IMG/VR virus record: IMGVR_UViG_3300033153_011579
DNA length: 64,000 nucleotides
Direction: 5' to 3' (one strand)
Source: a virus
Lineage: Duplodnaviria; Heunggongvirae; Uroviricota; Caudoviricetes
Shown here: positions 6,803 to 27,368 of the stretch, one piece after another
Layout of the letters: each line of letters begins with the position of its first letter
Numbering within the stretch: position 1 is the stretch's first letter
Notes under the pieces: generated by a model
The model's input: the letters and a program-made list of their open reading frames with translations, nothing else
Told to the model about the DNA's origin: nothing
Databases searched by the model: none
Position numbers and translations under genes: made by a program

Positions 6803-6807
6803 CGACC

Positions 6808-6843
6808 TGTAAGAGAATGGAGCGTTCTATGACAGAGAAAGAG
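6808..6843 (+). repeat. T1 element copy 11 (degenerate 3' half)
   Basis: TGTAAGAGAATGGAGCGTTCTATGACAGAGAAAGAG. Confidence 0.7.
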
Positions 6844-7152
6844 ATCAAGCCGAAGATGGTGGATGGCGAGGCGGTGTGTTCTAAAAACTGTCCGCGTTAT
6901 GGGATTGAGCCATGCATGGGGCTTGTTGATTTATCCTCATGCGCCCCCTACTACCGCGCCCGTGTCGCCGAGCTCGAGGCACAGATTTCAAGAATCAGCG
7001 ATACGATCTACCGGGGTGCTCCGCTGTCGTGGGCAAAGGCTGAATTTCACGAGGTCGTGAGCGCCTGGGAGCTGGATCTCTGTATCGCTCTGAACTTATG
7101 CGGCTTCCGCGACGCCCTTGAGCATATTAAGGCGAAGAAAGATTCAGAGTAA
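6829..7152 (+). CDS. Hypothetical protein (about 107 aa; start uncertain 6817/6829/6856)
   Basis: ...CSKNCPRYG...APYYRARVAELEAQISR; TAA inside T1 copy 12. Confidence 0.5.
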   Translation: MTEKEIKPKMVDGEAVCSKNCPRYGIEPCMGLVDLSSCAPYYRARVAELEAQISRISDTIYRGAPLSWAKAEFHEVVSAWELDLCIALNLCGFRDALEHIKAKKDSE

Positions 7153-7180
7153 GAGAATTTTACGTTCTCTGACACGGAGA
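7150..7180 (+). repeat. T1 element copy 12
   Basis: TAAGAGAATTTTACGTTCTCTGACACGGAGA; TAA = stop of upstream ORF. Confidence 0.9.
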
Positions 7181-7185
7181 AAAAG

Positions 7186-7674
7186 ATGAAGACACAAAAA
7201 GAGATTGCAGACCGAGTGAGCAAGTTAGGCAAATCAGACTTCTTCGGGTTCAGGGCAGAGGTACTGATCGGCTACTTGGGTATGGAACTGCTGGTGCCGT
7301 TCTTGAAGGAGGGTGCCCGCAAGCGGTTTGAAGAAGACAAGGAGAATCCCTGGACTGACCCGGTTTTCACAGAAGATGAGGTCAAGAAGGACATGCTCGA
7401 CTATCTCAAATTCGCTTTTGAGAAGTGTTTAGACCACCGTGGTATCTCCGCGAACCGGAGCATCGAGAAACTCGTTGAGTGGGCGTGGATTCTGGGGAGG
7501 GACGACCTGGTGGAGTTCGCAGGAGAGGCAGGCAACTTCCGAAATTACGGTGCGCCGGTTCTAAAGAAATTCGCTGAGGGGTTCGAGATAGAGCTGCCCG
7601 AGGACGAGCGGTTTCACCGAATGGCTCGTGGAGAGCGCTGCGGAGCGGACTACGCTTGCGGTTGTAACGAGTGA
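7186..7674 (+). CDS. Hypothetical protein (162 aa)
   Basis: ORF track; ATG after T1 copy 12 SD. Confidence 0.7.
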   Translation: MKTQKEIADRVSKLGKSDFFGFRAEVLIGYLGMELLVPFLKEGARKRFEEDKENPWTDPVFTEDEVKKDMLDYLKFAFEKCLDHRGISANRSIEKLVEWAWILGRDDLVEFAGEAGNFRNYGAPVLKKFAEGFEIELPEDERFHRMARGERCGADYACGCNE

Positions 7675-7677
7675 GCT

Positions 7678-7712
7678 TGTAAGAGAATTTTGCATTCTCT
7701 GACACGGAGAAG
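7678..7712 (+). repeat. T1 element copy 13
   Basis: TGTAAGAGAATTTTGCATTCTCTGACACGGAGAAG; preceded by shared TGAGCT. Confidence 0.9.
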
Positions 7713-8054
7713 ATGATGAATCAGGATAGAGTAATCGAAATAGTGAGGGGCTGGCGGTGTCCTCACTGCTTCATGGAGTACGAGAACATTAAGGAAGCCC
7801 AGGAGTGCGATCAGCAGTGCTCCGCCTTCCTCGACGATGCTCCCCCAACTTGTGACTGGTGTGATCAGCCGGGAGAACACGAGAGTCCAGTCGAGGGGCT
7901 ACACTTTCTCATCAACTGTGGGCACTACATGTACGGTATGCATGAGGACGATAGTGGGGACGCTGAGAACGACCGCTACGAGACCGTCCAGCGGTTACGC
8001 GGTGTCGAGGCCCTTCCATGGGAGTACCCAGACGTCGGAGTGAAAGATGAATAA
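7713..8054 (+). CDS. Cys-rich (zinc-binding-like) protein (113 aa)
   Basis: WRCPHCFMEY...ECDQQC...CDWCDQPGEH. Confidence 0.6.
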   Translation: MMNQDRVIEIVRGWRCPHCFMEYENIKEAQECDQQCSAFLDDAPPTCDWCDQPGEHESPVEGLHFLINCGHYMYGMHEDDSGDAENDRYETVQRLRGVEALPWEYPDVGVKDE

Positions 8055-8376
8055 GCCAGAAGAAGACTTTGGTCTCGTGGTCGAACTTCACGGCCCGCGC
8101 GTGATTCATCGGTGCCGAGACTGTGATCACAGGTTCGGGTCTCCGCCCAGGCATTGGCAATGTAAGGCGCACCCGCGTCACCTGGAAAACCCAGAATATG
8201 CTCTTCATTTGGTCGGAAGAGAGTTGGATGAAAGCGAGCTCACAGACGGATATGGGTTTTGTGACCTCATCCGTGTGGCGACACAGCCGACGTGTCCTGA
8301 GTTCGAGCCGCGTAGACCGGCGAGTGCTGGATTTGTGTCTTGGTGGAGAAGGCTGTTGGCGAAGTTCGGTCTGTAA
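8047..8376 (+). CDS. Cys-rich protein (109 aa)
   Basis: HRCRDCDHRFG...; 8-nt overlap with upstream gene, GGAG upstream; TAA in T1 copy 14. Confidence 0.55.
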   Translation: MNKPEEDFGLVVELHGPRVIHRCRDCDHRFGSPPRHWQCKAHPRHLENPEYALHLVGRELDESELTDGYGFCDLIRVATQPTCPEFEPRRPASAGFVSWWRRLLAKFGL

Positions 8377-8400
8377 GAGAATTTATGATTCTCTGACACG
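8372..8400 (+). repeat. T1 element copy 14 (no canonical GGAGG after TGACACG)
   Basis: TGTAAGAGAATTTATGATTCTCTGACACG then AGATGGGTAGATG. Confidence 0.85.
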
Positions 8401-8410
8401 AGATGGGTAG

Positions 8411-8650
8411 ATGAAGAAGCGAGCAAAACGAGTCGAAAGATTCCATGTGAGGTGTCCCTTTTGTGGCGATCTCGTGGACATCATGACGTCGCTCTCTTGG
8501 TGCTCTGGGTGTTTTGTCGAGTGGTACCGTACACGAGCTTGCAATTACATTTTTGATACCGAGAGGAAGACCGAGAGGTTCGTGTGGGCCAAGGCGGTGC
8601 AGAAGTCCGGAGGCATGCGGATCGCCTCAGCCAACGAGGACGATGAGTAA
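8411..8650 (+). CDS. Zinc-ribbon protein (79 aa)
   Basis: VRCPFCGDLVDIMTSLSWCSGCFVEWY; TAA in T1 copy 15. Confidence 0.6.
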   Translation: MKKRAKRVERFHVRCPFCGDLVDIMTSLSWCSGCFVEWYRTRACNYIFDTERKTERFVWAKAVQKSGGMRIASANEDDE

Positions 8651-8679
8651 GAGAATTCAGGATTCTCTGACACGGAGGA
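8648..8679 (+). repeat. T1 element copy 15
   Basis: TAAGAGAATTCAGGATTCTCTGACACGGAGGA; perfect 7-bp stem, 5-nt loop. Confidence 0.95.
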
Positions 8680-8683
8680 TGAG

Positions 8684-9052
8684 ATGTGGAACAGAGTAAT
8701 ATTCGCGGGCTGGATGGTAGTCGCGTTGCTGATCGGGGTCCTATTCGGCGCAGGCCTCTACCAAACCTGGCCGGCTAATCCCGACGTGATCGAGGACACC
8801 GAACCCTCAAGCGGTCGGCCCCTAGAGATCGAGATCTGCTCAGACGCGGCTGACCACTGCAACGATTCGGAGGACTGCGTAGAGGACGTATTCTCGCGGT
8901 GTCTTTACCACCTCGGGACGCCAACAATGTCCGACTGTCACGAAGAGTGCGCAGGGATCATGAAGGAGCTAAGCGACAAGAACGATGCGTGCTGGGATAG
9001 CTTCATGAACTGCCAAGACGTACTCGACGAGGTGTGGCGAGAAGCGCTGTAA
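8684..9052 (+). CDS. N-terminally anchored Cys-rich protein (122 aa), paralogue of 32459..32836
   Basis: TM VIFAGWMVVALLIGVLFGAGLY; TMSDCHEECAGIMKELSDKNDACWDSFMNC aligns with TIETCREECAEIVRDLSRANDDLWERWLAC. Confidence 0.65.
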   Translation: MWNRVIFAGWMVVALLIGVLFGAGLYQTWPANPDVIEDTEPSSGRPLEIEICSDAADHCNDSEDCVEDVFSRCLYHLGTPTMSDCHEECAGIMKELSDKNDACWDSFMNCQDVLDEVWREAL

Positions 9053-9086
9053 GAGAATTGAGAATTCTCTGACACGGAAAAGAGGA
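9048..9086 (+). repeat. T1 element copy 16
   Basis: TGTAAGAGAATTGAGAATTCTCTGACACGGAAAAGAGGA. Confidence 0.9.
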
Positions 9087-9091
9087 ACTCA

Positions 9092-9349
9092 GTGACTGAC
9101 GACATCATCCAGATTCGAACCGCGCCAGGATGCCGCAAGGAAAAGCCGATGCGGTATCTGGTGTTCCGCATCGAGTGCTACTACCCAGCGGGTGGGTGGG
9201 ACGACCTCGAAGCGACGACCAACGACAAGGAAACCGCAATCGAACTGGCCAAGAAAATTGAGGCTGAATTCAGCAGCGGCGAGGTGATTGACCTCGATAC
9301 TGGGACTCGCCTTTACCCGCCGTGGCGCGGTGACGACGAGGACGAGTAA
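9092..9349 (+). CDS. Hypothetical protein (85 aa, GTG start)
   Basis: GTG 5 nt after AAGAGGA; ends ...PWRGDDEDE*; TAA in T1 copy 17. Confidence 0.55.
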   Translation: MTDDIIQIRTAPGCRKEKPMRYLVFRIECYYPAGGWDDLEATTNDKETAIELAKKIEAEFSSGEVIDLDTGTRLYPPWRGDDEDE

Positions 9350-9380
9350 GAGAATTGGCGATTCTCTGACACGGAGAGGA
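9347..9380 (+). repeat. T1 element copy 17
   Basis: TAAGAGAATTGGCGATTCTCTGACACGGAGAGGA; upstream CGGTGACGACGAGGACGAG matches copy 6 flank. Confidence 0.95.
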
Positions 9381-9382
9381 AG

Positions 9383-9634
9383 ATGACCAGGCTCGAACAG
9401 TACCAAAAACTCCACGAGATCTTCCTCGTGAACAGGTTTTCGGACGTGTTGACCGAGGCTGAAGAAGACGACCTGCTCTACGCCCTGGACGCCGTTTGGT
9501 GGCAGATGACGAGTGCGGAGCACGCCGAAGCGGAGAAGGACACCTGGATGTGGAATCGGGTGCTGCGGGGATGGTTCGCGCACATCGATCCCGCTGGCGG
9601 AACGAACAACCCAGTGATGAAGTGGAGCTTGTAA
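9383..9634 (+). CDS. Hypothetical protein (83 aa)
   Basis: ORF track; TAA in T1 copy 18. Confidence 0.6.
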   Translation: MTRLEQYQKLHEIFLVNRFSDVLTEAEEDDLLYALDAVWWQMTSAEHAEAEKDTWMWNRVLRGWFAHIDPAGGTNNPVMKWSL

Positions 9635-9666
9635 GAGAACTGACAATTCCCTTACACGAGGAGGAG
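9630..9666 (+). repeat. T1 element copy 18 (divergent right arm, TTACACG)
   Basis: TGTAAGAGAACTGACAATTCCCTTACACGAGGAGGAG. Confidence 0.8.
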
Positions 9667-9669
9667 AGG

Positions 9670-9945
9670 ATGAGGCGGAATCGCAGAACAATGGTGGCCA
9701 CAAGCACGATAGGTTCGTGGATGAGCCGAGTGTATAGACTGGAAGCTGAGAACGAAAAGCTTCGTACTGATCTTCTCTTCGCCAAAGCAAAGATTAAGGC
9801 GATCCGGGTACGTATTGAGATGGTCGATGATGGGGAGAGCTGTTACCAGTCACACGACGCGGTACCAGACATTCTCAACATTCTGCGTGGGGGGACGCTT
9901 TGGACAGGAAGTCCACAGTACGCCGCCGTCAAAAAACGCCTGTAA
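9670..9945 (+). CDS. Hypothetical coiled-coil protein (91 aa)
   Basis: MRRNRRTMVATSTIGSWMSRVYRLEAENEKLRTDLLFAKAKIK...; TAA in T1 copy 19. Confidence 0.55.
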   Translation: MRRNRRTMVATSTIGSWMSRVYRLEAENEKLRTDLLFAKAKIKAIRVRIEMVDDGESCYQSHDAVPDILNILRGGTLWTGSPQYAAVKKRL

Positions 9946-9975
9946 GAGAACCGACTGACTCTATTACACGAGGAG
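9941..9975 (+). repeat. T1 element copy 19 (divergent)
   Basis: TGTAAGAGAACCGACTGACTCTATTACACGAGGAG. Confidence 0.75.
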
Positions 9976-9982
9976 ATAATAG

Positions 9983-10465
9983 ATGCACGGGCTAGGAAGA
10001 AGAGGAAACCGCCGGAAGAAACGCCTGAAGAAACATCGAGGCCGTACTCCTGCTAGAGTTTCGGCATCCAGCAAGGTCTACAACACTACCTCCAGGACCG
10101 TCGTCAAGACTGCTGCGCCCAGCACCGTCGTCACGTTCGACGACGTAGCTGATCTGGCCGAGGCGACCCTCGACGAGGAGAACGTGACCGCGCTGTTCAT
10201 GCGGTACGACAATAACATCAGGCCAACGCTCTTCTACACTGCCTACGCGGAAACTCCGTCTGGGCGCGTCTTCCTCCAGGCAGTCCATGTACTGTCGAAA
10301 GATGAGATCTACGAGAACCCAAAACACCCGCTGCCCTGTTACAGGGACGGCAAGGACATGAGGTGCCCCTATCCGCAGGAGCACATCATCGACAGGGCCG
10401 TTGAGTACTGGGAGTCCCGAGGGATTGACGTCTACGAGGGCACGGTGGAGATGAAGATTTTGTAA
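9983..10465 (+). CDS. Hypothetical protein with basic N-terminus (160 aa)
   Basis: MHGLGRRGNRRKKRLKKHRGRTPARV...; TAA in T1 copy 20. Confidence 0.6.
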   Translation: MHGLGRRGNRRKKRLKKHRGRTPARVSASSKVYNTTSRTVVKTAAPSTVVTFDDVADLAEATLDEENVTALFMRYDNNIRPTLFYTAYAETPSGRVFLQAVHVLSKDEIYENPKHPLPCYRDGKDMRCPYPQEHIIDRAVEYWESRGIDVYEGTVEMKIL

Positions 10466-10494
10466 GAGAACCTTCTATTCCCTGACATGGAGGA
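10461..10494 (+). repeat. T1 element copy 20
   Basis: TGTAAGAGAACCTTCTATTCCCTGACATGGAGGA. Confidence 0.8.
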
Positions 10495-10499
10495 TTGAG

Positions 10500-10733
10500 A
10501 TGAAAACGGGAGAACGCGAACTGTTCAAGGTAACCGGACGACCTGGTCGCCGTATCTGGCGCAAACAAGCCGGAGCGCGAGGGTACCGACCCATCTGGAC
10601 CTCCGACTACGTTGAGGAGGTTGACGGGAAGTTCTTCTGCACGATTCGGAGTGAGTCCGAGAACGACCTGCCGATGGAGCAGCACGATAACCTTCAAGAC
10701 GCGCTCGAGTGGTTGATGAGGGATCGGACGTAA
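10500..10733 (+). CDS. Hypothetical protein (77 aa)
   Basis: ORF track; TAA in T1 copy 21. Confidence 0.6.
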   Translation: MKTGERELFKVTGRPGRRIWRKQAGARGYRPIWTSDYVEEVDGKFFCTIRSESENDLPMEQHDNLQDALEWLMRDRT

Positions 10734-10762
10734 GAGAATCAACGATTCTCTGACATGGAGGA
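10731..10762 (+). repeat. T1 element copy 21
   Basis: TAAGAGAATCAACGATTCTCTGACATGGAGGA. Confidence 0.9.
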
Positions 10763-10766
10763 CAGG

Positions 10767-10961
10767 ATGAAACGCACGCTGTTGACCGAGATCGACTTTG
10801 ACCGTCAGAGCTGTCGGGTCATCGAGGCGGAGATCATCAAGTGCAACACCTGTAAGGGTAGCGGTTGGAAAGAGGTTTCGACGCACCGCGGAAACTACAG
10901 ACGCCGCTGTGCTCAGTGCCACGGCACAGGCAAGGTGCTGGTGGGACCGAAGGTTCGATGA
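10767..10961 (+). CDS. DnaJ-type zinc-finger-like protein (64 aa)
   Basis: Two CxxCxGxG motifs: CNTCKGSG and CAQCHGTG. Confidence 0.6.
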   Translation: MKRTLLTEIDFDRQSCRVIEAEIIKCNTCKGSGWKEVSTHRGNYRRRCAQCHGTGKVLVGPKVR

Positions 10962-10962
10962 C

Positions 10963-10996
10963 TGTAAGAGAACAGACGATTCTCTGACACGAGGAG
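10963..10996 (+). repeat. T1 element copy 22
   Basis: TGTAAGAGAACAGACGATTCTCTGACACGAGGAG. Confidence 0.9.
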
Positions 10997-11002
10997 AGAA
11001 GG

Positions 11003-11254
11003 ATGAATTTCAGTAACGAGCAAATGACAGAGTGGCTGTCGGAGGTTCCGGAAGCTACCAGCGTACGCTGCGTGGCTATCCCTCCGTACATCAGTAAAGA
11101 GATGAAGGAGCGGCCAGTGATTCCGTGGGATCTGCTTACCCGAGAAGTCAACAACAAGATAGGTGATGGTGACCGCGTACTCGGGATTCGTGCTGCGGGG
11201 GCCAACTCCTACGGCAATTACTGGATCATCATTTGGGTTGGCAACAAAGAGTGA
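11003..11254 (+). CDS. Hypothetical protein (83 aa)
   Basis: ORF track; ATG after T1 copy 22 SD. Confidence 0.6.
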   Translation: MNFSNEQMTEWLSEVPEATSVRCVAIPPYISKEMKERPVIPWDLLTREVNNKIGDGDRVLGIRAAGANSYGNYWIIIWVGNKE

Positions 11255-11257
11255 GCT

Positions 11258-11290
11258 TGTAAGAGAAACTAATATTCTCTGACGGAGGAG
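11258..11290 (+). repeat. T1 element copy 23
   Basis: TGTAAGAGAAACTAATATTCTCTGACGGAGGAG; preceded by shared TGAGCT. Confidence 0.85.
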
Positions 11291-11293
11291 AGC

Positions 11294-11527
11294 ATGGACA
11301 ACGATACCAAAAGACTGTGTGGCAACTGCTTCTGGTTTGATCAAGAGCTCTGTCGACGACTGCCACCGCGCATGATTGACCAGGTAGATCTTTATGAAAA
11401 AGATAGTGAGTTCAACACCTGGAATGCCAGTTACGCAGACGACTACACCTCTTGGCCAGTTGTAGAAGAGAAAGCCTGGTGCGGAGAATGGCGATCGAAG
11501 GAAGACGGCTGGCCCGTCGGTAAGTAA
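11294..11527 (+). CDS. Cys-rich hypothetical protein (77 aa)
   Basis: CGNCFWFDQELCRRLPP...WCGEW; TAA in T1 copy 24. Confidence 0.6.
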   Translation: MDNDTKRLCGNCFWFDQELCRRLPPRMIDQVDLYEKDSEFNTWNASYADDYTSWPVVEEKAWCGEWRSKEDGWPVGK

Positions 11528-11556
11528 GAGAATCAAACATTCTCTGACACGAGGAG
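11525..11556 (+). repeat. T1 element copy 24
   Basis: TAAGAGAATCAAACATTCTCTGACACGAGGAG. Confidence 0.9.
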
Positions 11557-11559
11557 AAG

Positions 11560-11673
11560 ATGATGGAAATTCTAATTTTTTGGCTGTGCTTTTGTGGACT
11601 CGGAGCCGTTGGTATATTGGTAGCGTCCTTGGTGATCCTCAGTGAGGAACGTCAACGAAACGGTCGCCAGTAA
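11560..11673 (+). CDS. Small hydrophobic peptide (37 aa; below ORF-track cutoff)
   Basis: MMEILIFWLCFCGLGAVGILVASLVILSEERQRNGRQ*; exactly bounded by T1 copies 24 and 25. Confidence 0.4.
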   Translation: MMEILIFWLCFCGLGAVGILVASLVILSEERQRNGRQ

Positions 11674-11701
11674 GAGAATCAGCACGTTCCCTGAAAGGAA
11701 G
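11671..11701 (+). repeat. T1/T2 hybrid element (copy 25)
   Basis: TAAGAGAATCAGCACGTTCCCTGAAAGGAAG: T1 left half joined to the ACGTTCCCTGAAAGGA tail seen in T2 copy e. Confidence 0.8.
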
Positions 11702-11714
11702 ATTGGAGAACAAA

Positions 11715-11927
11715 ATGTCGAAGAACACGGTCACGCAGCACGTTTTGGTTGATTCCCATGTTGAGTGCTTCCCTGAGGAATTCCTCGAAGCACTTCTCGC
11801 AGTTTGTCCGGCTCCCTTGGCACCGGACAGTCTTAAACAACTCCGTGACATAGGGAGAGTCCAGTTGAGCCTCTGGCTTTCCCCGGAGGACTTGAAGCGC
11901 TGGACAGGTAAAGCGCCAGGGGAATGA
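11715..11927 (+). CDS. Hypothetical protein (70 aa)
   Basis: MSKNTVTQHVLVDSHVECFPEEF...; stop TGA lies in T2 copy b. Confidence 0.5.
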   Translation: MSKNTVTQHVLVDSHVECFPEEFLEALLAVCPAPLAPDSLKQLRDIGRVQLSLWLSPEDLKRWTGKAPGE

Positions 11928-11938
11928 CACTTTCCCTG
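11919..11938 (+). repeat. T2 hairpin copy b
   Basis: GGGGAATGACACTTTCCCTG; TGA = stop of upstream ORF. Confidence 0.8.
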
Positions 11939-11976
11939 TGCCTACACAACAACCGCCTAGTGGGGCAAGGAGTAGG

Positions 11977-12330
11977 ATGATGACAGAGCATACATTGACC
12001 GTTGGTGGAAGCGAGGTCGTGGTTTCGAGTAACCCTGTTTCAAGGGACCTTGTCGGCTCGGACCGCAGCTTCGGAGATGAACGCGCGCACCCATGTCCGA
12101 ACTGTAGCAAAAATAGTCTGCGCTACCATTTCCTCGACTACAGGCCTGCGCTGTCGTGGGCCTGCGTCGAGTGTGGCTATGCTGAGCACCCGCCGATTGA
12201 AAAGTTGGTTGCCGATGGGTACTCCCCGCAGAAGGTAGAGGAGGATTGGTCGACCTGCATTTACCCAAAGGAGTGGATGCTTTACTCCCCGCTTGAGCGG
12301 TTAGCGTCACCACAAACACGAAAGGATTAG
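11977..12330 (+). CDS. Zinc-ribbon protein (117 aa; track start 11938 is GTG)
   Basis: HPCPNCSKNS...WACVECGYAEHP; AAGGAG 6 nt before ATGATG. Confidence 0.5.
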   Translation: MMTEHTLTVGGSEVVVSSNPVSRDLVGSDRSFGDERAHPCPNCSKNSLRYHFLDYRPALSWACVECGYAEHPPIEKLVADGYSPQKVEEDWSTCIYPKEWMLYSPLERLASPQTRKD

Positions 12331-12334
12331 AACG

Positions 12335-12685
12335 ATGGGTTTGTTTTCACCACCAGGCCAAGCTCCAGATCTCCGAGAGGCGAAAGATGTTAGAGTTATC
12401 GTCACCCTATGCAAGGACGAAGAACCAGGTGATGGATATGTCCGAACACAGATAACCGCTCTCGATGAACTCGAGGAGGGTGAAGAGGGTTTAAATATTA
12501 ACGGAGACAACGTCTTTGAGGCACTGGTTTACGCGCTGTACCACCACTTTGTAAACGAGCACGAGGTTGGGCATTCTTGTTGCCTTACTCATTTTATCGA
12601 AGAGATCACAGACCTACTGGAGCGTGTCAACGAGACTGACGGAAACGAAAAGGTCAGTCGGAGTTCTGAAGAACACACACATTAA
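12335..12685 (+). CDS. Hypothetical protein (116 aa), AT-richer
   Basis: ORF track; visibly lower GC than array average. Confidence 0.55.
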   Translation: MGLFSPPGQAPDLREAKDVRVIVTLCKDEEPGDGYVRTQITALDELEEGEEGLNINGDNVFEALVYALYHHFVNEHEVGHSCCLTHFIEEITDLLERVNETDGNEKVSRSSEEHTH

Positions 12686-12727
12686 TAAGGGTTATTGCAT
12701 CAGCTGCGGACCGTCGACCCTGTATGA

Positions 12728-12746
12728 GGAATGACACGTTCCCTGG
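12728..12746 (+). repeat. T2 hairpin copy c (in non-coding gap)
   Basis: GGAATGACACGTTCCCTGG. Confidence 0.8.
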
Positions 12747-12793
12747 TGGGAGAACGTCGAACTGGAGTGAGAGGAGTTTGAATGTTTAAAGCA

Positions 12794-12944
12794 CGTCGAG
12801 TTCTCCGAGCGCGCGGTGAGTGTGGACGGGGGCCTGCGTTGGGTTTTTGTGACGAATTCTCCTTAGCAGGCCTTCTACGTGGAGTGCTTCAACCATTCCA
12901 TCGACCTACTCGACCCACTCACCGCGCGCTCGGAGAACTCGACG
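12794..12944. repeat. 29-bp perfect inverted repeat flanking a 93-nt spacer
   Basis: 12794-12822 CGTCGAGTTCTCCGAGCGCGCGGTGAGTG is the exact reverse complement of 12916-12944; nested GGCCTGC/GCAGGCC pair in the spacer. Confidence 0.9.
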
Positions 12945-12971
12945 GCACGCAGTCGGGGGAAGGAGAAAAGA

Positions 12972-13181
12972 ATGCGAAAATATCGATTTCAGCACGATGA
13001 GGATGGTGACGTGCTGTGGGTCTACATCGCCGGTAACTCCGCGTACCCAGGGGAGCACCGCTTCGATCCACCAGAAGTTTTGGAGGCCTACATCGGTTAC
13101 CTTCGAGCATGTAAAGGTGATCAACTTGATTCTGATGTAGTTATCGCCTGGAAGGACAGTGCTTGGGGTCCGGATGTCTGA
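12972..13181 (+). CDS. Hypothetical protein (69 aa)
   Basis: MRKYRFQHDEDGDVLWVYIAG...; GGAAGGAGAAAAGA upstream; stop abuts T2 copy d. Confidence 0.5.
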   Translation: MRKYRFQHDEDGDVLWVYIAGNSAYPGEHRFDPPEVLEAYIGYLRACKGDQLDSDVVIAWKDSAWGPDV

Positions 13182-13196
13182 TGACACGTTCCCTGG
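13179..13196 (+). repeat. T2 copy d (left arm missing)
   Basis: TGATGACACGTTCCCTGG. Confidence 0.65.
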
Positions 13197-13232
13197 TACC
13201 CCTATGCCCAAACACTAGGCAGGAGGAATGAG

Positions 13233-13412
13233 ATGTCTGAAAAGAAAGCTGTGGTTCAACGTGTTGTCATCCACGAACTCTTGGATGCAGGTGTGGTGGC
13301 GATCGAAGGACGTGATCTTGTGTTCGAGTCCCCCTGGGACAAGGGCTCAGAGGCGATGATTGCTTTGATGAAGAAAGGCCTCGTCAAAGACGTGGTCCGG
13401 GACAGGGAATGA
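13233..13412 (+). CDS. Hypothetical protein (59 aa; below ORF-track cutoff)
   Basis: MSEKKAVVQRVVIHELLDAGVVAIEGRDLVFESPWDKGSEAMIALMKKGLVKDVVRDRE*; AGGAGGAATGAG upstream; TGA in T2 copy e. Confidence 0.45.
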   Translation: MSEKKAVVQRVVIHELLDAGVVAIEGRDLVFESPWDKGSEAMIALMKKGLVKDVVRDRE

Positions 13413-13423
13413 CACGTCCCCTG
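13405..13423 (+). repeat. T2 hairpin copy e
   Basis: GGGAATGACACGTCCCCTG followed by AAAGGAG SD and ATG 13438. Confidence 0.8.
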
Positions 13424-13437
13424 AAAGGAGAAGCCCG

Positions 13438-13713
13438 ATGGGTCAAACAACATCCGACAATCCAGGTGGAGTGAAGTCGCTCTTCGAAGATAACAACTCA
13501 CAAAAAGCTACTGCCTCCACGCTCGCCGGATACCTCGTCGAAGATGGTGCTTGGATGGTATTGCCAGATGGGGACCGCGAGATCACTATTGTGCGGCACA
13601 GAGACTATGGCACGATCATGTATCTCATTGATGGTCCAGGCGAGGATATAAGAAGCGGCGTAGTAAAAACGGTGCGAGAACTCGCTGACGCCATCGCCGT
13701 TGGTGGGGAATGA
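13438..13713 (+). CDS. Hypothetical protein (91 aa)
   Basis: ORF track; stop TGA in T2 copy f. Confidence 0.55.
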   Translation: MGQTTSDNPGGVKSLFEDNNSQKATASTLAGYLVEDGAWMVLPDGDREITIVRHRDYGTIMYLIDGPGEDIRSGVVKTVRELADAIAVGGE

Positions 13714-13726
13714 CACGTTCCCTAGG
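13705..13726 (+). repeat. T2 hairpin copy f
   Basis: GGGGAATGACACGTTCCCTAGG, 10 nt before T1 copy 26. Confidence 0.85.
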
Positions 13727-13736
13727 AACTTGAGCT

Positions 13737-13770
13737 TGTAAGAGAATCTCGCATTCTCTGACACGGAGGA
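13737..13770 (+). repeat. T1 element copy 26
   Basis: TGTAAGAGAATCTCGCATTCTCTGACACGGAGGA; preceded by shared TGAGCT. Confidence 0.95.
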
Positions 13771-13774
13771 AAAA

Positions 13775-13954
13775 ATGGACGAACACATGAGATATTTAGG
13801 CTGCCTGAAACTACTTGAGGATTGCTCACCTTACGTACCGGAAGAGATTCGTGAGGGTATCGAGATGGCTCACGACGATGCTGTAGAGGCCAGCAACGGG
13901 ACCTTGCGGGCTCGCAGTGTGCTCGATCGACGAGAGATCGAGGTGGTGACGTAA
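13775..13954 (+). CDS. Hypothetical protein (59 aa; below ORF-track cutoff)
   Basis: MDEHMRYLGCLKLLEDCSPYVPEEIREGIEMAHDDAVEASNGTLRARSVLDRREIEVVT*; bounded by T1 copies 26 and 27. Confidence 0.5.
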   Translation: MDEHMRYLGCLKLLEDCSPYVPEEIREGIEMAHDDAVEASNGTLRARSVLDRREIEVVT

Positions 13955-13984
13955 GAGAATCCGCACGTTCTCTTACACGGAGGA
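13952..13984 (+). repeat. T1 element copy 27
   Basis: TAAGAGAATCCGCACGTTCTCTTACACGGAGGA. Confidence 0.85.
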
Positions 13985-13985
13985 A

Positions 13986-14189
13986 ATGATGGGTAAAGAT
14001 GTGAGGACCAAGACATTCGCTATGATGTTTCGGGAGCGCTGCGTGATCATGCGGGATGCTTTCGACCGCCGTGACGTAGAGGGCTTTGCTACTGCTCTCA
14101 AGGACGTTGAGCGCCTGATGCGAGAGCACGCCGAGGGGTGCGGCTGCTCACAATGCCGAGAGACGCTGAAGATCATGAATGAGGTGTAA
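13986..14189 (+). CDS. Hypothetical protein (67 aa)
   Basis: ORF track; ...HAEGCGCSQCRETLK; TAA in T1 copy 28. Confidence 0.55.
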   Translation: MMGKDVRTKTFAMMFRERCVIMRDAFDRRDVEGFATALKDVERLMREHAEGCGCSQCRETLKIMNEV

Positions 14190-15164: not shown

Positions 15165-15528
15165 CGTGTTCCTTCCCGGGCGAGGCTGGCTACTCGTGAA
15201 GCCACCGGAGTCGGAAGCCGACACAGGAGAGGTCTACACTGTCGACGTGATCGAGCTCGCCGCCGAGGAGAAGTCCGCGTGCCCGCAGTTCCAGGAGGAG
15301 ACAGCGATACGCGGTGCTGGCGGCGCTCCGATGATGACCGTGGACATCGTGCTCCCGAAGCGCTGCTACGTCGGTGACCGGTGGAGCGTACTAAAGGACA
15401 GAGACGCAGTGCGCGAGGTACCCGACCTGGACGGTGCCCTGCTCAAGACCGAGGAGGTGATCGGCTGGGAGTGGGAGGACGACCGTCTCAAGCCGCCTCC
15501 TGGCGTCGTAGAGGACCTGGACTCCTGA
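15148..15528 (+). CDS. Hypothetical protein (126 aa)
   Basis: GGAGGTG upstream of ATG; 17-nt overlap with upstream gene. Confidence 0.55.
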   Translation: MFLKNSVFLPGRGWLLVKPPESEADTGEVYTVDVIELAAEEKSACPQFQEETAIRGAGGAPMMTVDIVLPKRCYVGDRWSVLKDRDAVREVPDLDGALLKTEEVIGWEWEDDRLKPPPGVVEDLDS

Positions 15529-16487
15529 TGCCGACCAGAGCACACATCCAGGCGTTGGCCAACGCGAGAGAGGCTCTCGAGCCGTTCAGCCGGTGGCTCG
15601 TCCGCGGGTGCGGGAAGACCGATGGAGAGGCCGACTTCATCATCAGCTTCGTGTGTCGCGCGCTGTGGACTTCCACCGCCGACGACGACGAGGATCCCGA
15701 CCCGCTCGATTGCCTCTCCGAGCCGATGATCACCCGGCCGACATTCAACAAGCTGAAATCGGCCATCCGGCAGTATTACACCTGGCACCTCGTCCGGCAG
15801 TCGTCGCCACCGAGTGAGAAAGAGCGGGCGAGGCGGCAGCTCAGGCGGCTCGAATCCATCTTGCCGTACGGCGGCGTCGGGAGACGAGCCAAACGGGTCG
15901 CGATCGATGCGCTGTCGCAGGCGGATTTAAAAAAGCTCATGGACGGACTGAAAAAATGGCACGCGGAACAAGGACGGCGATGGCCCTGGAGCTACCCGGT
16001 GATCAGCATGTGCCTGAAGATCTCGCCGGCGATCAGAAACTGTCTGGTCTACCTCTCTCGTGAGGAGCTCGTCCTCGCTCTCGCCGACGGGGTGAACAGC
16101 GGGTCGTTCAACCTGTGGGTCCGCCAGAAGAACGTGCCGGTCATGAGGTCGATCCCCATCGGGCTCGTCTGGAAAGAGGCGGACATGCTCGTCGGCTGGC
16201 CCTGGCAATGGGAGACGCTCCAGGACATTATCTCGTCGTCCAACGCGAGCACCCAGAACTCGGTGAACAAGATCAAAGAGATCTCTTTCAAGTACTATCG
16301 CCACGTCCTGGGAGACATCGGCGACCCGAAGACGTTCTTAGCTCGACTTCGGTATGCCACCTGGGTCTGGCTCTTGAAAAAGACGAAAGGCGACTGGCTC
16401 TCCGTCGCGCAGATCGTCGGGAAGTCGGTAAAGATCCTCAGAAGACGGCCGGAGCTGCTCGAGGTCGTGTCGAGGAGGCTGAACTAG
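15528..16487 (+). CDS. Recombinase-like protein with degenerate catalytic motifs (319 aa)
   Basis: TGATG coupling; ARLRYATWVWLLKKTKGDWLSVAQIVGKSVKIL resembles the HxLRH...GH box II but lacks His/His/Tyr. Confidence 0.4.
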   Translation: MPTRAHIQALANAREALEPFSRWLVRGCGKTDGEADFIISFVCRALWTSTADDDEDPDPLDCLSEPMITRPTFNKLKSAIRQYYTWHLVRQSSPPSEKERARRQLRRLESILPYGGVGRRAKRVAIDALSQADLKKLMDGLKKWHAEQGRRWPWSYPVISMCLKISPAIRNCLVYLSREELVLALADGVNSGSFNLWVRQKNVPVMRSIPIGLVWKEADMLVGWPWQWETLQDIISSSNASTQNSVNKIKEISFKYYRHVLGDIGDPKTFLARLRYATWVWLLKKTKGDWLSVAQIVGKSVKILRRRPELLEVVSRRLN

Positions 16488-17173
16488 TCCGATACGCAGC
16501 GAGTGTACTGAGACTCGGTCTTGAGAGACCCCCACACATAGGCCTCGGAGAACAGGACGCCCCAGGCGTACGCCGGGTTGTTCCCGGGCGAGCTCGACCA
16601 GTGGTACGACCAGCACGGACCGACAAGGTCATCCCCCCAGTAGCACCCGTCCGACCCGGGGCCTTCCAATTCGGCGCACGGATCGCAGTCGGGACCCTCC
16701 GCGCACGGATTCGTCAGGCAGTCGGGGTCGGTCACCCCGCAGTCTACCGACGCGCAGCCGACGATGATTCCCGACAGCTCCTGGATCAGCGGGAGTCGCC
16801 AGTCGTCGCCGAGGGCCTCGCAGTAGTCGACCGCGTCGACCCAGAGCATGAGCTCGGTGCTCGGCGGGTTCTCCCAGCAGAGGTCGCCGTCTAGCCAGCA
16901 GGTGGCCGTGTCGGTATCGGTGTCGGTATCGGTGTCGGTGTCGGTATCGATCACTGTTTCCGTATTGGTTTCGGTATCTTGCGTGTCTGTGTCGATCACG
17001 GTGTCCGTGTCGGTGTCCGTATCGGTCTCGGTGTCGGTGTCACCGTCGGTGTCCGTGTCCGTGTCGGTGTCCGAATCGACGTCCGTGTCGGTGTCGCCGG
17101 CGTCCGGCTCCATGAACGGAGCCTCGGTATCGCCGCAGGCCATCACAATTGCGAATATCCAAATATATCTCAT
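16484..17173 (-). CDS. Lipoprotein with (Thr-Asp)n repeats and DUF1566 (Lcl C-terminal-like) domain
   Basis: MRYIWIFAIVMACGD lipobox; DTDTDTD tracts; DDWRLPLIQELSGI...YHWSSSP...YAWGVLF...YTRCVSD. Confidence 0.7.
   Translation of the reverse strand: MRYIWIFAIVMACGDTEAPFMEPDAGDTDTDVDSDTDTDTDTDGDTDTETDTDTDTDTVIDTDTQDTETNTETVIDTDTDTDTDTDTDTATCWLDGDLCWENPPSTELMLWVDAVDYCEALGDDWRLPLIQELSGIIVGCASVDCGVTDPDCLTNPCAEGPDCDPCAELEGPGSDGCYWGDDLVGPCWSYHWSSSPGNNPAYAWGVLFSEAYVWGSLKTESQYTRCVSD
16908..17096 (-). repeat. Hexanucleotide-type tandem repeat (GTGTCG/GTATCG) encoding TD/TE/VD repeats
   Basis: gtgtcggtatcggtgtcggtatcggtgtcggtgtcggtatcg... inside 16484..17173. Confidence 0.9.
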
Positions 17174-17420: not shown

Positions 17421-17596
17421 CTCAAACTCCTATGCTCACGGGCTCGAGGGAGAGACAGGCCCCCCGGAGAACGACGACCGAGGCGAAGGCAGAAAGCCGC
17501 TGGTCAGACGGCAACCCCGACCGCTTTACAGGCGACCCGTCACTCCATCCAACCCGTGAGGTACTTCGTACATGTGTGATTTTGCGCTTCGGCATC

Positions 17597-18598
17597 CTAA
17601 AAAGGCGTCTTCCGCTCTGCTGCAGCCCTGATCATACCGTCTATCTCGCTCTTCAGCCACTCTCGCTCTCGCTCGGTCGGCTCCCGCCCCTTCACGCGGC
17701 CCGTGAACCACCCCAAATCGGCCTCCCAGTCGTACTCGTCGGCGAACACCCGGACCACCTGCAGCATCCGGTCTTTTACGTGCGCTCGAGTCAACCTCCC
17801 GCGGGAGATCGGCGCAGGCTTCTCCAGCGTCGCCATCAGCCCGCTAGCGGGTATGTATTCCTCGGACTCGTCCGGCTCGTCCTCTGAGGCCTCGTCGGGC
17901 TCGAGAGGCTCAGAATCGCCCTGAGGGGCGCTAGCGCCCTCTTTACATTGTTCACTAACACTGGAATCGGCGTTGACCGCGTTGATCAGGACAACGTGAT
18001 CGTCCAGCTTGTGCCAGAACGCTTGGACGAGTCCAGAGCACATCGCCTCGTCGAGCTTCTCGTCGTCCTCTTGCAGGCCGGACATCATGACCCGCCGAGT
18101 GTCAGGGTAGGTCGCCTCGATCTCACTCAGCAGACCGAGACCAGACATCCCAGGCATCTCGAAGTCGGTGATGACCACGTCGAACGTCCCGAGCTTGTTG
18201 ATGAGCATGATCGCCTGACTCGCCGAGCTCGCCTGGGTCGTCTCCCAGTCTTTGGGGAGAAGCCGGCAGACCGTCCGCCGCATGATGTCCTCGTCGTCGA
18301 CCACGAGGATGCGCAGGCGTCTCTTCGACGTCCTGGCTTCCGGAGGGTTGGTCCAGGCCCGGCACTCGCGAGCGAGGTTGACGTTCCCAACGCGCTCGGA
18401 GGTCGCGTAGACCGTCTCGATCACGGACTGCCAGAGGCCGCTGCAGGACTCGGGAGGTCCCCAGATCTCCTTCGGCCCAGCTCCCTCGATGGAGCTCAGC
18501 AGCCGGCCCTTGATCGTCGGGTCGAACAGCCCCTCTTTGAGAAACTGCATCGCGACCTCGCGAAGCTCGGGGTCCAGTGGTCGTCTAGATTTTGTCAT
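17597..18598 (-). CDS. Response-regulator receiver (REC) domain protein with unknown flanking domains (333 aa)
   Basis: RILVVDDEDIMRR...FDVVITDFEMPGMSGLGLL...RRVMMSG...FWHKL = DD / phospho-Asp / S / K of the CheY fold. Confidence 0.8.
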   Translation of the reverse strand: MTKSRRPLDPELREVAMQFLKEGLFDPTIKGRLLSSIEGAGPKEIWGPPESCSGLWQSVIETVYATSERVGNVNLARECRAWTNPPEARTSKRRLRILVVDDEDIMRRTVCRLLPKDWETTQASSASQAIMLINKLGTFDVVITDFEMPGMSGLGLLSEIEATYPDTRRVMMSGLQEDDEKLDEAMCSGLVQAFWHKLDDHVVLINAVNADSSVSEQCKEGASAPQGDSEPLEPDEASEDEPDESEEYIPASGLMATLEKPAPISRGRLTRAHVKDRMLQVVRVFADEYDWEADLGWFTGRVKGREPTEREREWLKSEIDGMIRAAAERKTPF

Positions 18599-18630
18599 TT
18601 CCGCTCTCTTTCTGCCGGAACCACCCGGCT
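18596..18630 (-). repeat. T3 leader copy a (hairpin + purine-rich SD)
   Basis: Minus strand AGCCGGGTGGTTCCGGCAGAAAGAGAGCGGAAATG ending at the response-regulator ATG. Confidence 0.85.
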
Positions 18631-18861: not shown

Positions 18862-18894
18862 CTTCCGCTCTCTCTCTGCCGGCGACCAGCCGGC
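18859..18894 (-). repeat. T3 leader copy b (stem changed, structure kept)
   Basis: Minus strand GCCGGCTGGTCGCCGGCAGAGAGAGAGCGGAAGATG. Confidence 0.8.
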
Positions 18895-18903: not shown

Positions 18904-19215
18904 TCAGCTTAAAACCGGCCAGAGCTGGACGTCGAAGATCTCCTCTTGCGTCCTCTGGATGTCTGTGAGGATCTGGTCCTGCTTCGCGAGCGCGGCGTAT
19001 GACTCCTCGTCGCCCTCGGCCTTGTCGGCATCTTCGAACCACGCGCGCCAGTTCTGGTTCGGGGCATCGCCCCACTCGCAGTCGATCGTGATGTCAGGAT
19101 ACAGTCGCGCGATCTCTTCGCCGACTGCCTTGCAGAACCTGTGCATCGACTTCTGGACGTCCATCCCGTCCATGTCGCCCATCGCGTGCTCGTCGATTCT
19201 GATGTGTGCGATCAT
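18904..19215 (-). CDS. Hypothetical protein (103 aa)
   Basis: MIAHIRIDEHAMGDMDGMD...; the track ORF extension to 19242 is the translated T3 leader. Confidence 0.6.
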   Translation of the reverse strand: MIAHIRIDEHAMGDMDGMDVQKSMHRFCKAVGEEIARLYPDITIDCEWGDAPNQNWRAWFEDADKAEGDEESYAALAKQDQILTDIQRTQEEIFDVQLWPVLS

Positions 19216-19248
19216 TTTCCGCTCTCTTTCTGCCGGAACCACCCGGCT
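19213..19248 (-). repeat. T3 leader copy c
   Basis: Minus strand AGCCGGGTGGTTCCGGCAGAAAGAGAGCGGAAAATG; upstream stop TAG overlaps the hairpin base. Confidence 0.85.
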
Positions 19249-19420
19249 AGTTGTCTTTAGATGCCTTGTTTATATGCGGGTACCACTTCTGCTGCCGAGT
19301 CCACATCTCTAAAACCTCGTCGGATGGTTCCCCGTATATGTCCAAGGAACAATCATTGCACTCGCCTTGCGGACCATATGGCTCTGTCAAACACCCACAC
19401 TCTGGACAACAGTTTTTCAT
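19247..19420 (-). CDS. Small Cys-rich protein (57 aa; below ORF-track cutoff)
   Basis: MKNCCPECGCLTEPYGPQGECNDCSLDIYGEPSDEVLEMWTRQQKWYPHINKASKDN*; preceded by T3 copy d. Confidence 0.45.
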   Translation of the reverse strand: MKNCCPECGCLTEPYGPQGECNDCSLDIYGEPSDEVLEMWTRQQKWYPHINKASKDN

Positions 19421-19455
19421 TTTTCCGCTCTCTTTCTGGCCGGAACCACCCGGCT
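19418..19455 (-). repeat. T3 leader copy d
   Basis: Minus strand AGCCGGGTGGTTCCGGCCAGAAAGAGAGCGGAAAAATG. Confidence 0.85.
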
Positions 19456-26062: not shown

Positions 26063-26266
26063 TCAATCCTCCCTCGTATATTTGTCTAAGAGCGCCTGCT
26101 GCTCCTTGGTGAGTTCTTCTCCGATCTGGGTCAGCATGACGACGTGCCAGAACTCGCACATCTCCCGCTGGGCGTCGTCGCACATTATTTGGAACTCGTC
26201 GGTGATCGTCTCGCCTTCTTCGAGCGGCGGCGCTTTGATCTCGACGGTCCAGGTGATCTCAGTCAC
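26063..26266 (-). CDS. Hypothetical protein (67 aa)
   Basis: ORF track. Confidence 0.5.
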   Translation of the reverse strand: MTEITWTVEIKAPPLEEGETITDEFQIMCDDAQREMCEFWHVVMLTQIGEELTKEQQALLDKYTRED

Positions 26267-27368
26267 GGATCACCTCGACGATCCCTTTGGCAGTTGGTGA
26301 CAAGCTCGCGAGGACCGCATCGGCTCCGGTGACCTCCCTGATGTGCGCCAGGAACTTTGCGTCGTCGTCCATCTTCAAGATCTCGCCGCCGTCGAAGAAC
26401 CGAAAGTCGTCGTTGATGAGGTCGAGGCACGTGACGGCCAGCTCCGGGGTTTTCGTCATGATGTAGTCGTCTTTGTAGATGGCGTAGCTGAGCAGGTCGA
26501 GATCCAGGAGGGTCTTCCTAAATGTTCCCTGGGGGCCGTCGTCCGGGTTCTGCTCGTGTGGATTGTCCTTGATGTTGCAGGGGACGATGTCGCTCATCGG
26601 ACCTTTCCCATGCCGCGTCTGGTAAGCGCGGGTGACGAGCACGATCTCCGGCTCGTATCCCATCTCGCAAATATTTTTCGACCCGGTGTTCGTCGGAGTG
26701 ACGTATGGAAAAAAACCAAAATTCTGGTCGAGCAGCAGGCCTTGCGACCCTTCCCAGATAACCGTTTCGAACGAATCGATGACCTGCTCGTTCGACATCC
26801 CGATGGCCGCGTTGTGTGTCACCTCGTCGCACGCGACGAAGAAATTTTGGATGATGTAGTCGTCCGGTCTGAAGCCGTAGTATTGATAAAACTGCTCCAT
26901 CTTCATCCGCATTATTCTCGGGTGGAACAGGTCTTCGAACAGCAGGTGATGACCCTCCCGCTCTCTTTTGACGGTCGCGAAGATTCCGACCTCACAGCTG
27001 CCGCCGAAATCGGAATTCCGCTTATTCCACTCGATTTCAAACGGCGTGGTGACCGGGCACCTGTGGTCGACGAGGAGTCGTGGGAAGACTTTTTTCACCA
27101 GCAAGACGTCGAGCTCGTTCATGAGGGCGACGGGGTTGACCGAGCAGTATTTCGACCAGAAGGTCGGGACGCCTCGGAACGACCCGCTACCGAAATGAGA
27201 AAATACGTGAGACCTACCGTCCTCGAGCACCACCTGATGCGCGGCCTGGTGGCCGCCCGAGAACCGCACCACGAGCTCGGCCTTGTTGACGTCACAGAGG
27301 TAGTCGACCAGATGTCCTTTCCCCTCGTCCCCAAAGCCGAGCCCGATGACAGCGATGTGCTTGGTCAC
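26259..27368 (-). CDS. Short adenylosuccinate-synthetase homologue (PurA family; PurZ candidate)
   Basis: IAVIGLGFGDEGKGHLVDYL, GGHQAAHQ, WEGSQGLLLD...PYVTPTNT, TRHGKGP, TCLDLI parallel the PurA motifs; 369 aa. Confidence 0.85.
   Translation of the reverse strand: MTKHIAVIGLGFGDEGKGHLVDYLCDVNKAELVVRFSGGHQAAHQVVLEDGRSHVFSHFGSGSFRGVPTFWSKYCSVNPVALMNELDVLLVKKVFPRLLVDHRCPVTTPFEIEWNKRNSDFGGSCEVGIFATVKREREGHHLLFEDLFHPRIMRMKMEQFYQYYGFRPDDYIIQNFFVACDEVTHNAAIGMSNEQVIDSFETVIWEGSQGLLLDQNFGFFPYVTPTNTGSKNICEMGYEPEIVLVTRAYQTRHGKGPMSDIVPCNIKDNPHEQNPDDGPQGTFRKTLLDLDLLSYAIYKDDYIMTKTPELAVTCLDLINDDFRFFDGGEILKMDDDAKFLAHIREVTGADAVLASLSPTAKGIVEVIRD

Follow-up and report, generated by a model that had tools for sequence, protein, structure and literature searches.

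Within the 64,000-nucleotide stretch of DNA that we analyzed (hereafter the window), the open reading frame (ORF) at positions 17597..18598 on the minus strand comprises 333 codons and a TAG stop codon at 17597-17599, and encodes a response regulator (RR), confirming what a sequence-only reading of this locus had reported. This is the top-scoring frame in the interval on a codon-usage gene map, and its GC3 of 0.80 is like that of the adjoining genes; we found no coding signature in the 57-aa ORF at 17422-17595 (GC3 0.64). In the public gene call, the RR is 317 aa long and begins at Met17 (P0001). Using a repeat search and folding, we identified in the 5' leader of the gene (18599..18630, minus strand) a 6-bp GC hairpin (GCCGGG-UGGU-UCCGGC) followed by AGAAAGAGAGCGGAA, a purine-rich, Shine-Dalgarno-like stretch that abuts the ATG. 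An exact 24-mer of this leader element is present twice, as compared to 0 expected occurrences, and the hairpin element has only four copies, all located within 18.6-19.45 kb, which precede the RR gene and the three genes upstream of it. Because the 33-nt leader element abuts Met1 of the RR, as it does the starts of the three genes immediately upstream, we consider Met1 to be preferable to Met17 as the predicted start codon.

The central part of the predicted RR is a receiver (REC) domain (residues 96-209; 17972..18313, minus strand) with the doubly wound (βα)5 fold of this superfamily. When the full protein was compared to Pfam at E<=1, the Response_reg family (PF00072) was the only match (residues 97-191; 56.6 bits, with the gathering cutoff at 30.2; E=3.5e-15), and a phmmer search of PDB sequences returned 134 receiver chains, the best of which were 3kcn and CheY homologues (E~1e-9) and all of which cover only residues ~92-205. 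The closest REC sequences belong to hybrid histidine kinases and NtrC-family regulators, and the PHROG matches to this domain were phrog_731 (E=1.9e-13) and PHROG 5982.

Each residue that defines a receiver, namely an acidic pair, an aspartate, a serine or threonine, and a lysine after β1, β3, β4 and β5, respectively, is found in this domain. The acidic metal-binding pair, D101 and D102 (codons at 18293..18298, minus strand; CheY D12/D13 equivalents), is placed after β1 and is invariant in the 30/31-sequence alignments and in 5/5 members of the protein family described below. The predicted phosphoacceptor, D145 (codon at 18164..18166, minus strand; CheY D57 equivalent), is also invariant and is located at the end of the modelled β3 (residues 141-145). 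At the end of β4 (residues 168-173), S173 (codon at 18080..18082, minus strand; CheY T87 equivalent) is aligned by HMMER to a threonine of 3kcn, and this position is S or T in 5/5 family members. K197 (codon at 18008..18010, minus strand; CheY K109 equivalent) follows β5 (residues 193-196), aligns with the lysine of the K-P pair in 3kcn, and is invariant across the family as part of an [FTA]-W-x-K motif. The sole departure from the receiver canon is the residue after K197, where leucine takes the place of the usual cis-proline; across the family this pair is K-L, K-A, K-G or K-N. The complete receiver that the sequence-only reading had proposed from its motifs is thus borne out at the level of structural position.

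Pseudo-receivers are defined by the loss of at least one residue needed for phosphotransfer, and are both common and difficult to recognize (PMC12632262). The earlier reading had named homology to a pseudo-receiver scaffold as grounds for setting it aside; we found the five phosphotransfer residues in 5/5 family members. Retention of the D-D, D, S/T and K positions among five proteins that share 27-40% identity indicates that phosphotransfer chemistry is under selection, and speaks against a pseudo-receiver in the sense of that definition (PMC12632262). From these alignments and the structural model, we conclude that the receiver is canonical, with an intact phosphoacceptor site, and is predicted to be competent for phosphorylation.

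The C-terminal region of the RR, ~125 aa in full, had been read as a single acidic tail of ~110 aa, a description that does not hold, as two parts of opposite charge can be distinguished. The first (residues 210-262; 17813..17971, minus strand) consists of an α5 extension and a disordered, acidic Pro/Glu-rich linker with a net charge of about -14, for which AF2 gave a pLDDT of 43-65 and no secondary structure beyond residue 220. The second (residues 263-333; 17600..17812, minus strand) is a slightly basic module of ~65 aa, in which an extended R-L-x-R-x-H segment is followed by a predicted three-helix bundle (residues 271-288, 291-302 and 309-328; pLDDT 80-94). The model used here came from a second prediction that included an alignment; AF2 run on the single sequence gave a pLDDT of 37.6.

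We were unable to place this module in any described family. The C-terminal 79 aa searched alone had no Pfam match at E<=10, a profile search of the PDB gave chance matches only (E>=0.4), and the NCBIfam models that matched the RR did so through REC only, far under their cutoffs, with none matching the module. Comparison to the Fis-type helix-turn-helix of the NtrC family gave an hhalign probability of 0.5%, and PF23198, another candidate, proved to be the second REC domain of REC-REC proteins. None of the described output classes (OmpR/PhoB, NarL/LuxR, NtrC/Fis, LytTR, GGDEF/EAL/HD-GYP, CheB, ANTAR and others) is represented in the protein, nor is this a single-domain CheY-like protein, being 333 aa long with a 95-aa N-terminal and a ~125-aa C-terminal region in addition to REC.

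A phmmer search with the last 79 aa of the RR against 1.84e9 representative sequences identified four real relatives (P0048, P0049, P0050 and P0051; E=2.7e-9 to 8e-5). These proteins are 216-250 aa in length and all have an N-terminal REC domain, an acidic or Pro-rich linker of variable length and the module at the C-terminus (4/4). In full-length pairwise BLAST comparisons, the RR matched each of them over ~230-250 aa (E=1e-28 to 1e-39), and the five proteins are mutually just 27-40% identical. Two other candidates, P0047 and P0052, were discarded as tandem-repeat proteins with inflated scores. Alignment of the module across the five proteins revealed 13 invariant columns, including seven basic residues and two tryptophans, with no indels between motifs and with the fixed-spacing consensus R-L-x-R-x-H...W...L...K-x-R-x-P-[TS]-[DE]-R-E-R-x-W. 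By this measure the conservation of the module equals that of the REC domain, and with seven basic residues and two tryptophans that never vary, it may bind nucleic acid or an acidic protein surface. As the module is common to four other phage REC proteins, an output domain, undescribed so far, does exist in this RR, contrary to the earlier view that none could be recognized. The family consists of five members, all metagenomic, so the conservation statistics are thin.

Additional searches outlined the distribution of this family. Each member is an unnamed singleton cluster among ~15 billion proteins, and a word-indexed search with the full protein returned the RR itself plus REC-only matches. 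We also derived a degenerate DNA pattern with fixed spacing for the module (~44 bits), which was validated on the window and on the four homologue loci (L005-L008), matching in 4/4 of the latter. This pattern had 0 matches in 185,579 bacterial and archaeal species genomes and none in IMG/VR or the JGI metagenome collection; scans of the latter, from which the source contig is absent, returned generic REC matches only. No relatives were present in IMG/VR or the GenBank phage collection. A homologue search with the module profile also found nothing, and carries little weight as it missed known members too.

In the loci that encode the four homologues, the neighboring genes include those for a tape-measure protein, a sliding clamp of phage type and an endonuclease V like that of T4. 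The gene order in L008 matches that of the window (a g34-like gene, an SLT-like gene whose product is 51% identical, small genes, and REC), and L005 has in common with the window an 81-aa gene downstream of REC (g26/L005_79) and, weakly, g31/L005_67. We looked for a conserved, translationally coupled partner gene beside REC and found none across the five loci, these two pairs being the only genes shared. From gene content and order, the homologue loci belong to related phages. Together, these results place the RR in the receiver superfamily, outside every described output class, and define what appears to be a new, small and previously undescribed family that is encoded only by phages, within a divergent lineage of uncultured tailed phages.

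The absence of a histidine kinase from the window, which had been noted earlier, was borne out over a larger region that also lacks a recognizable Hpt. Using eight hybrid histidine kinases as phmmer seeds against six-frame, stop-to-stop ORFs of at least 30 aa, we found that the sole match at E<=10 was the REC domain of the RR itself. A Pfam scan of 112 predicted proteins detected no HisKA, HATPase_c, Hpt, CheA or CheW domain and no second receiver. Contigs from sibling metagenomes, which match the ends of the window at 99.97-100% identity, allowed us to extend it by 5.4 kb on the left (L001) and 9.4 kb on the right (L004), and neither flank contains a kinase or a receiver. The wider search for kinase and Hpt genes that the earlier reading had advised thus extended to ~79 kb of the 82,351-bp source contig, and in none of this was there the nearby HisKA and HATPase_c pair of a classical two-component system (TCS). 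We conclude that, as judged by these searches, no kinase or Hpt is encoded by the phage within the ~79 kb examined.

The N-terminal extension of the RR (residues 1-95; 18314..18598, minus strand) is coding by its GC3 of 0.81 and is predicted to contain four helices (residues 10-21, 27-39, 53-70 and 73-83). In the AF2 check that had been suggested for both terminal regions, the module was predicted with confidence, and these helices had a pLDDT of 65-77, with this one sequence alone covering the region. The four homologues begin directly at β1, so that the 95 residues are missing in 4/4. Searched alone, residues 1-95 had no Pfam match at E<=10 and no similarity to any ORF of the homologue loci. 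A homologue search with this region also returned nothing, and is given little weight since the same type of search missed known family members.

Several identities for this extension were considered and rejected. Residues 1-95 contain zero histidines, which rules out an Hpt or DHp domain, and there was no Pfam match to Hpt or HisKA. Full-protein BLAST against P0002 had reached into the F/G2-box region of that kinase, and an EspA model alignment began at residue 26, but the N-terminus alone scored no better than shuffled sequences when compared to the HATPase_c domains of eight kinases (z=-0.3 to 2.2); therefore, the apparent kinase-like match reflects over-extension of the alignment and not a decayed hybrid kinase. 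A PhyR-like sigma mimic was also unsupported, given that the N- and C-terminal regions, when aligned to the phage sigma factor, scored below the mean of shuffled sequences (z=-0.75 and -0.93); Pfam detected no Sigma70_r2 or Sigma70_r4 domain in the RR. Fusion of the RR with the small gene found upstream of REC in the homologue loci was rejected for lack of similarity at E<=50. The earlier statement that the regions flanking REC are unassignable thus stands for the N-terminus, which looks to be an orphan extension specific to the lineage of this phage's copy, and gives way at the C-terminus to a linker and a conserved module.

The context of the gene is phage-like, as had been proposed. The RR gene lies within 20 kb of small, closely spaced genes that are all on one strand, and long same-strand blocks of small, abutting genes are a feature of the window. 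Matches to phage families include a PurA/PurZ-type adenylosuccinate synthetase (phrog_1211, E=1e-51), phrog_2971 (E=1e-42) and phrog_200 (E=4e-36); the window also encodes DUF5131, SLT, GP88, a GroES-like protein and two Laminin_G_3 proteins. An integrase located ~17 kb from the RR was matched in PHROG (E=2.4e-11), with a Pfam match below the cutoff (E=3.6e-4), and a phage sigma-70-family protein is encoded just upstream of the window (L001:3433-4107). No capsid, portal or terminase was recognized in the window, and two large proteins (681 aa and 605 aa) had no match in PHROGs, Pfam, PDB or GenBank phages. With its virion genes unrecognized, assignment of the window to a phage draws on its auxiliary genes and on the gene order that it shares with relatives whose phage nature is better supported, and this indirect evidence is consistent with the contig being phage DNA.

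Chemical signals that phages are known to sense include arbitrium peptides and host autoinducers, and VqmA-Phi of vibriophage VP882 and the arbitrium protein AimR are phage receptors that read host or community signals. By conceptual analogy, the phage studied here may hold the receiver half of a system whose input is host-generated information; VqmA-Phi and AimR belong to other protein families and act by ligand binding, as opposed to phosphotransfer. Annotated receivers in phage genomes have been treated as uncharacterized auxiliary genes, and we know of essentially no mechanistic example of a phage that joins bacterial His-Asp phosphotransfer directly. In the literature, we found no paper that describes the mechanism of a phage-encoded canonical receiver.

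The RR can be compared to other receivers, cellular and viral. Canonical TCS regulators provide the closest REC sequences, but the RR differs from them in having no cognate kinase in the element, an undescribed output module, W-x-K-[LAGN] in place of K-P, an extra 95-aa N-terminus and a distribution limited to phages. In Alteromonas phages, a 149-aa CheY-like protein is regarded as an auxiliary gene of unclear mechanism (PMC10579305). Such phage CheY-like proteins (V22 gp30 and A5 gp11; PHROG 731) are likewise receivers of tailed phages in which no phage-encoded kinase accompanies them. Structural matches to the RR in BFVD include the V22 protein (E=1.6e-5); of the 27 viral proteins found there at E<=0.001, most are kinases of giant viruses and a few are regulators of phages. 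In contrast to the RR, V22 gp30, A5 gp11 and the other BFVD phage regulators are single-domain (~149 aa) or have ordinary bacterial DNA-binding outputs; the C-terminal module is not shared with the phage CheY-like proteins, and the alignments cover the generic REC domain only.

Two other uses of RR parts by phages are known. The cREC domains of jumbo phages are divergent, are linked to NAD+/ADP-ribose processing enzymes and are never paired with histidine kinases (PMC7824862). They resemble the present case as a REC fold in phages without a histidine kinase, whereas the domain described here is conventional and lacks NAD+/ADP-ribose neighbors; the match between the RR and the cREC of Aeromonas phage 65 was at E=0.22 (BFVD). 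Gut phages encode truncated Spo0A homologues that have kept the effector domain, lost the receiver and become signal-independent (PMC10294663). These too are borrowed RR parts, but the situation here is the opposite, in that the receiver is intact, which implies signal dependence. Viral receivers are therefore not new, and what appears from our comparisons to be new is the phage-only C-terminal module, which is absent from the phage receivers named above.

Considering these data together, the reading that we favor, at somewhat better than even odds, is that this protein is an orphan REC-linker-module regulator that is phosphorylated by the host, after which the module would engage its target and so couple the phage to the state of its host. 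We infer a host donor because the phage supplies no phosphodonor: in the infected cell, D145 would receive its phosphoryl group from a histidine kinase or Hpt of the host, or from acetyl phosphate. The C-terminal module would then differ in its availability or its oligomeric state. While the protein is unphosphorylated, this module might be masked by the acidic linker, from which phosphorylation could release it. Through its invariant basic residues and tryptophans, the module would bind nucleic acid or a protein of either host or phage, and in this way host takeover or the expression of phage genes could be tied to the signaling or metabolic state of the host. In this sense, the phage probably reads the signaling state of its host. 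A more specific proposal, which we regard as tentative, is that the family is a phage-own class of RR that eavesdrops on a host phosphorelay or the acetyl-phosphate pool and sets the timing or outcome of infection, perhaps by acting at the hairpin leaders. A role as a decision input, which the sequence-only reading had suggested, is possible; a link to the choice between lysis and lysogeny is weak, the evidence for it being the weak integrase match ~17 kb away.

The earlier reading had also suggested that the protein serves as a phosphate sink. Stand-alone receivers are established as sinks in bacterial chemotaxis and phosphorelays, and this RR could drain phosphoryl groups from host kinases or Hpt proteins, or titrate a kinase, with no need for an output of its own; the host pathway silenced in this way might be, for example, an envelope stress, motility, development or defense regulator. 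The intact phosphoacceptor pocket, the lack of a phage-encoded kinase and the existence of single-domain CheY-like proteins in other phages, such as Alteromonas V22 gp30 (PMC10579305), are all in keeping with a sink or decoy. However, a sink has no need of the module, yet the module is conserved to the same degree as REC, with 13 invariant positions and no indels at 27-40% identity, and the REC-linker-module layout is kept in 5/5 members. This extra conservation disfavors a pure phosphate sink, which we consider unlikely. More generally, catalytic residues that are kept in divergent members, combined with an output domain that is absent from cellular genomes, favor a signal-dependent regulator over a passive decoy. 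It is a little less probable still that phosphorylation plays no part and that REC is an interaction or dimerization platform, as it is in pseudo-receivers or atypical regulators, whose acidic pocket has been kept for binding of a metal or ligand. The missing cis-proline (K-L, K-A, K-G or K-N), the deviation of the β5 motif [FTA]-W-x-K from the canonical form, the absence of a kinase in cis, and the frequency with which pseudo-receivers occur and escape notice (PMC12632262) would fit such a scaffold; the conserved phosphotransfer residues discussed above argue against a pseudo-receiver.

An adaptor resembling RssB or CpdR, in which REC controls whether a host or phage protein, bound by the C- or N-terminal region, is handed to a protease of the host, or whether a sigma factor is sequestered, would be consistent with the phage sigma factor in the left flank and with terminal regions that are modelled as small, helical and non-enzymatic. 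RssB and CpdR models were among the NCBIfam matches, though through generic REC only and far under their cutoffs. We found no RssB- or CpdR-specific similarity outside REC, the terminal regions are unlike the phage sigma factor, and no conserved partner gene adjoins the REC gene in the five loci, all of which make an adaptor improbable. The least likely explanation, to which we attach very little probability, is that the gene is not from a phage but from a host chromosome or another mobile element, in a misassembled or non-viral contig, with its kinase elsewhere in the host. The unrecognized capsid, portal and terminase, the weak Pfam match of the integrase and the lack of relatives in IMG/VR or the GenBank phage collection could be cited for this explanation. 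Against it, the gene sits in the 20-kb same-strand block with matches to phrog_1211, phrog_2971, phrog_200, DUF5131 and SLT, and its homologues adjoin a tape-measure gene, a phage clamp and a T4-type endonuclease V. In addition, independent assemblies of three sibling samples yielded this sequence at 99.97-100% identity, and both the module and the neighboring SLT-like gene are absent from 185,579 bacterial and archaeal genomes.

Returning to the favored reading of a host-phosphorylated regulator, this locus presents a defined, conserved architecture that is open to testing, in which an intact receiver is joined to an output module that is encoded only by phages. If the proposed mechanism is true, host kinases would become one more input that phages exploit, and the repertoire of RRs would gain a new effector domain. 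The family would then represent a counterpart, based on phosphotransfer, of the phage quorum-sensing and arbitrium receptors.

Four consecutive start codons on the minus strand, those of the REC gene (17597-18598, minus strand) and of the 75-aa, ~103-aa and 57-aa genes upstream of it, are each immediately preceded by a copy of a 33-nt leader element (18598-18630, 18862-18894, 19216-19248 and 19422-19454, all on the minus strand). The element is made up of a 6-bp hairpin (GCCGGG-UGGU-UCCGGC) and, downstream of it, a purine-rich SD sequence (AGAAAGAGAGCGGAA) that lies exposed. Two of the four copies are 100% identical, and the most divergent copy retains the stem through a paired change in which G.U is replaced by C-G. 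As DNA, the leader forms a 16-bp palindrome, which could equally be an operator. No further copy turned up in the rest of the window or at the related loci.

The position of these repeats also bears on the annotation of the gene at 18904-19242 (minus strand). Its longest open reading frame begins with a GTG at 19242. This start is probably wrong: going by the repeated leader, translation begins instead at an ATG at 19215 and yields a product of 103 aa. The 57-aa open reading frame preceded by the leader copy at 19422-19454 (19247-19420, minus strand) encodes a zinc-ribbon-like CPEC...CNDC spacing and has an atypically low GC content at third codon positions (GC3, 0.57). Downstream of the REC gene lies a 176-nt gap (17421-17596), in whose minus strand we detected no terminator-like site. 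A separate 57-aa open reading frame (17422-17595) exactly fills this gap and lacks a coding signature (GC1/2/3 = 0.60/0.57/0.64).

We also looked for a sigma-70 consensus promoter around the REC gene and found none, a result that fits the use of phage-specific promoters. A 224-aa sigma-70-family protein (Sigma70_r2 + r4) is phage-encoded on the sibling metagenome contig L001 (L001:3433-4107), just beyond the window and about 2-1.3 kb upstream of its position 1.

The left 14 kb of the window (1-14000) has a GC content of 0.53-0.58 and weaker codon-usage scores in comparison to positions 14000-64000 (GC ~0.60-0.64), and the gene caller predicted almost no genes between 10961 and 14493. This region, which is next to the integrase gene (82-969), may be a distinct module that was recently acquired or is differently expressed. 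It contains an internal 347-bp duplication (2746-3092 and 5953-6299, ~92% identity), detected as a secondary BLAST match of L001 and L002 to the window, which gives rise to two paralogous 109-aa genes (2746-3075 and 5953-6282).

Capsid, portal and terminase genes all went unrecognised across the whole window, from which we infer that the virion module is very divergent in this lineage. The two largest proteins of the window (681 aa, 38230-40275; 605 aa, 51754-53571; both plus strand) have a strong coding signal and were unmatched in PHROGs, Pfam, PDB sequences and GenBank phages.

An adenylosuccinate-synthetase-like gene (26259-27368, minus strand; PF00709, E=1e-39) matches phrog_1211 (E=1e-51), the PHROG used for PurZ, and shares ~33-35% identity with PurA-like genes from phages of Rhizobium and Mycobacterium. 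Judged from these matches, it might be a sign of a 2-aminoadenine (Z) genome or might simply be a phage PurA.

Convergent with the 3' end of a plus-strand gene (15528-16487) is the gene for a predicted lipoprotein (16484-17146, minus strand) with a C-terminal Lcl_C/DUF1566 domain (E=6e-12) and a long Thr-Asp dipeptide repeat (DTDTDT...) that corresponds to a 12/18-nt periodic DNA repeat. This may be a 'moron' gene related to the host surface, and may offer a clue to the host clade.
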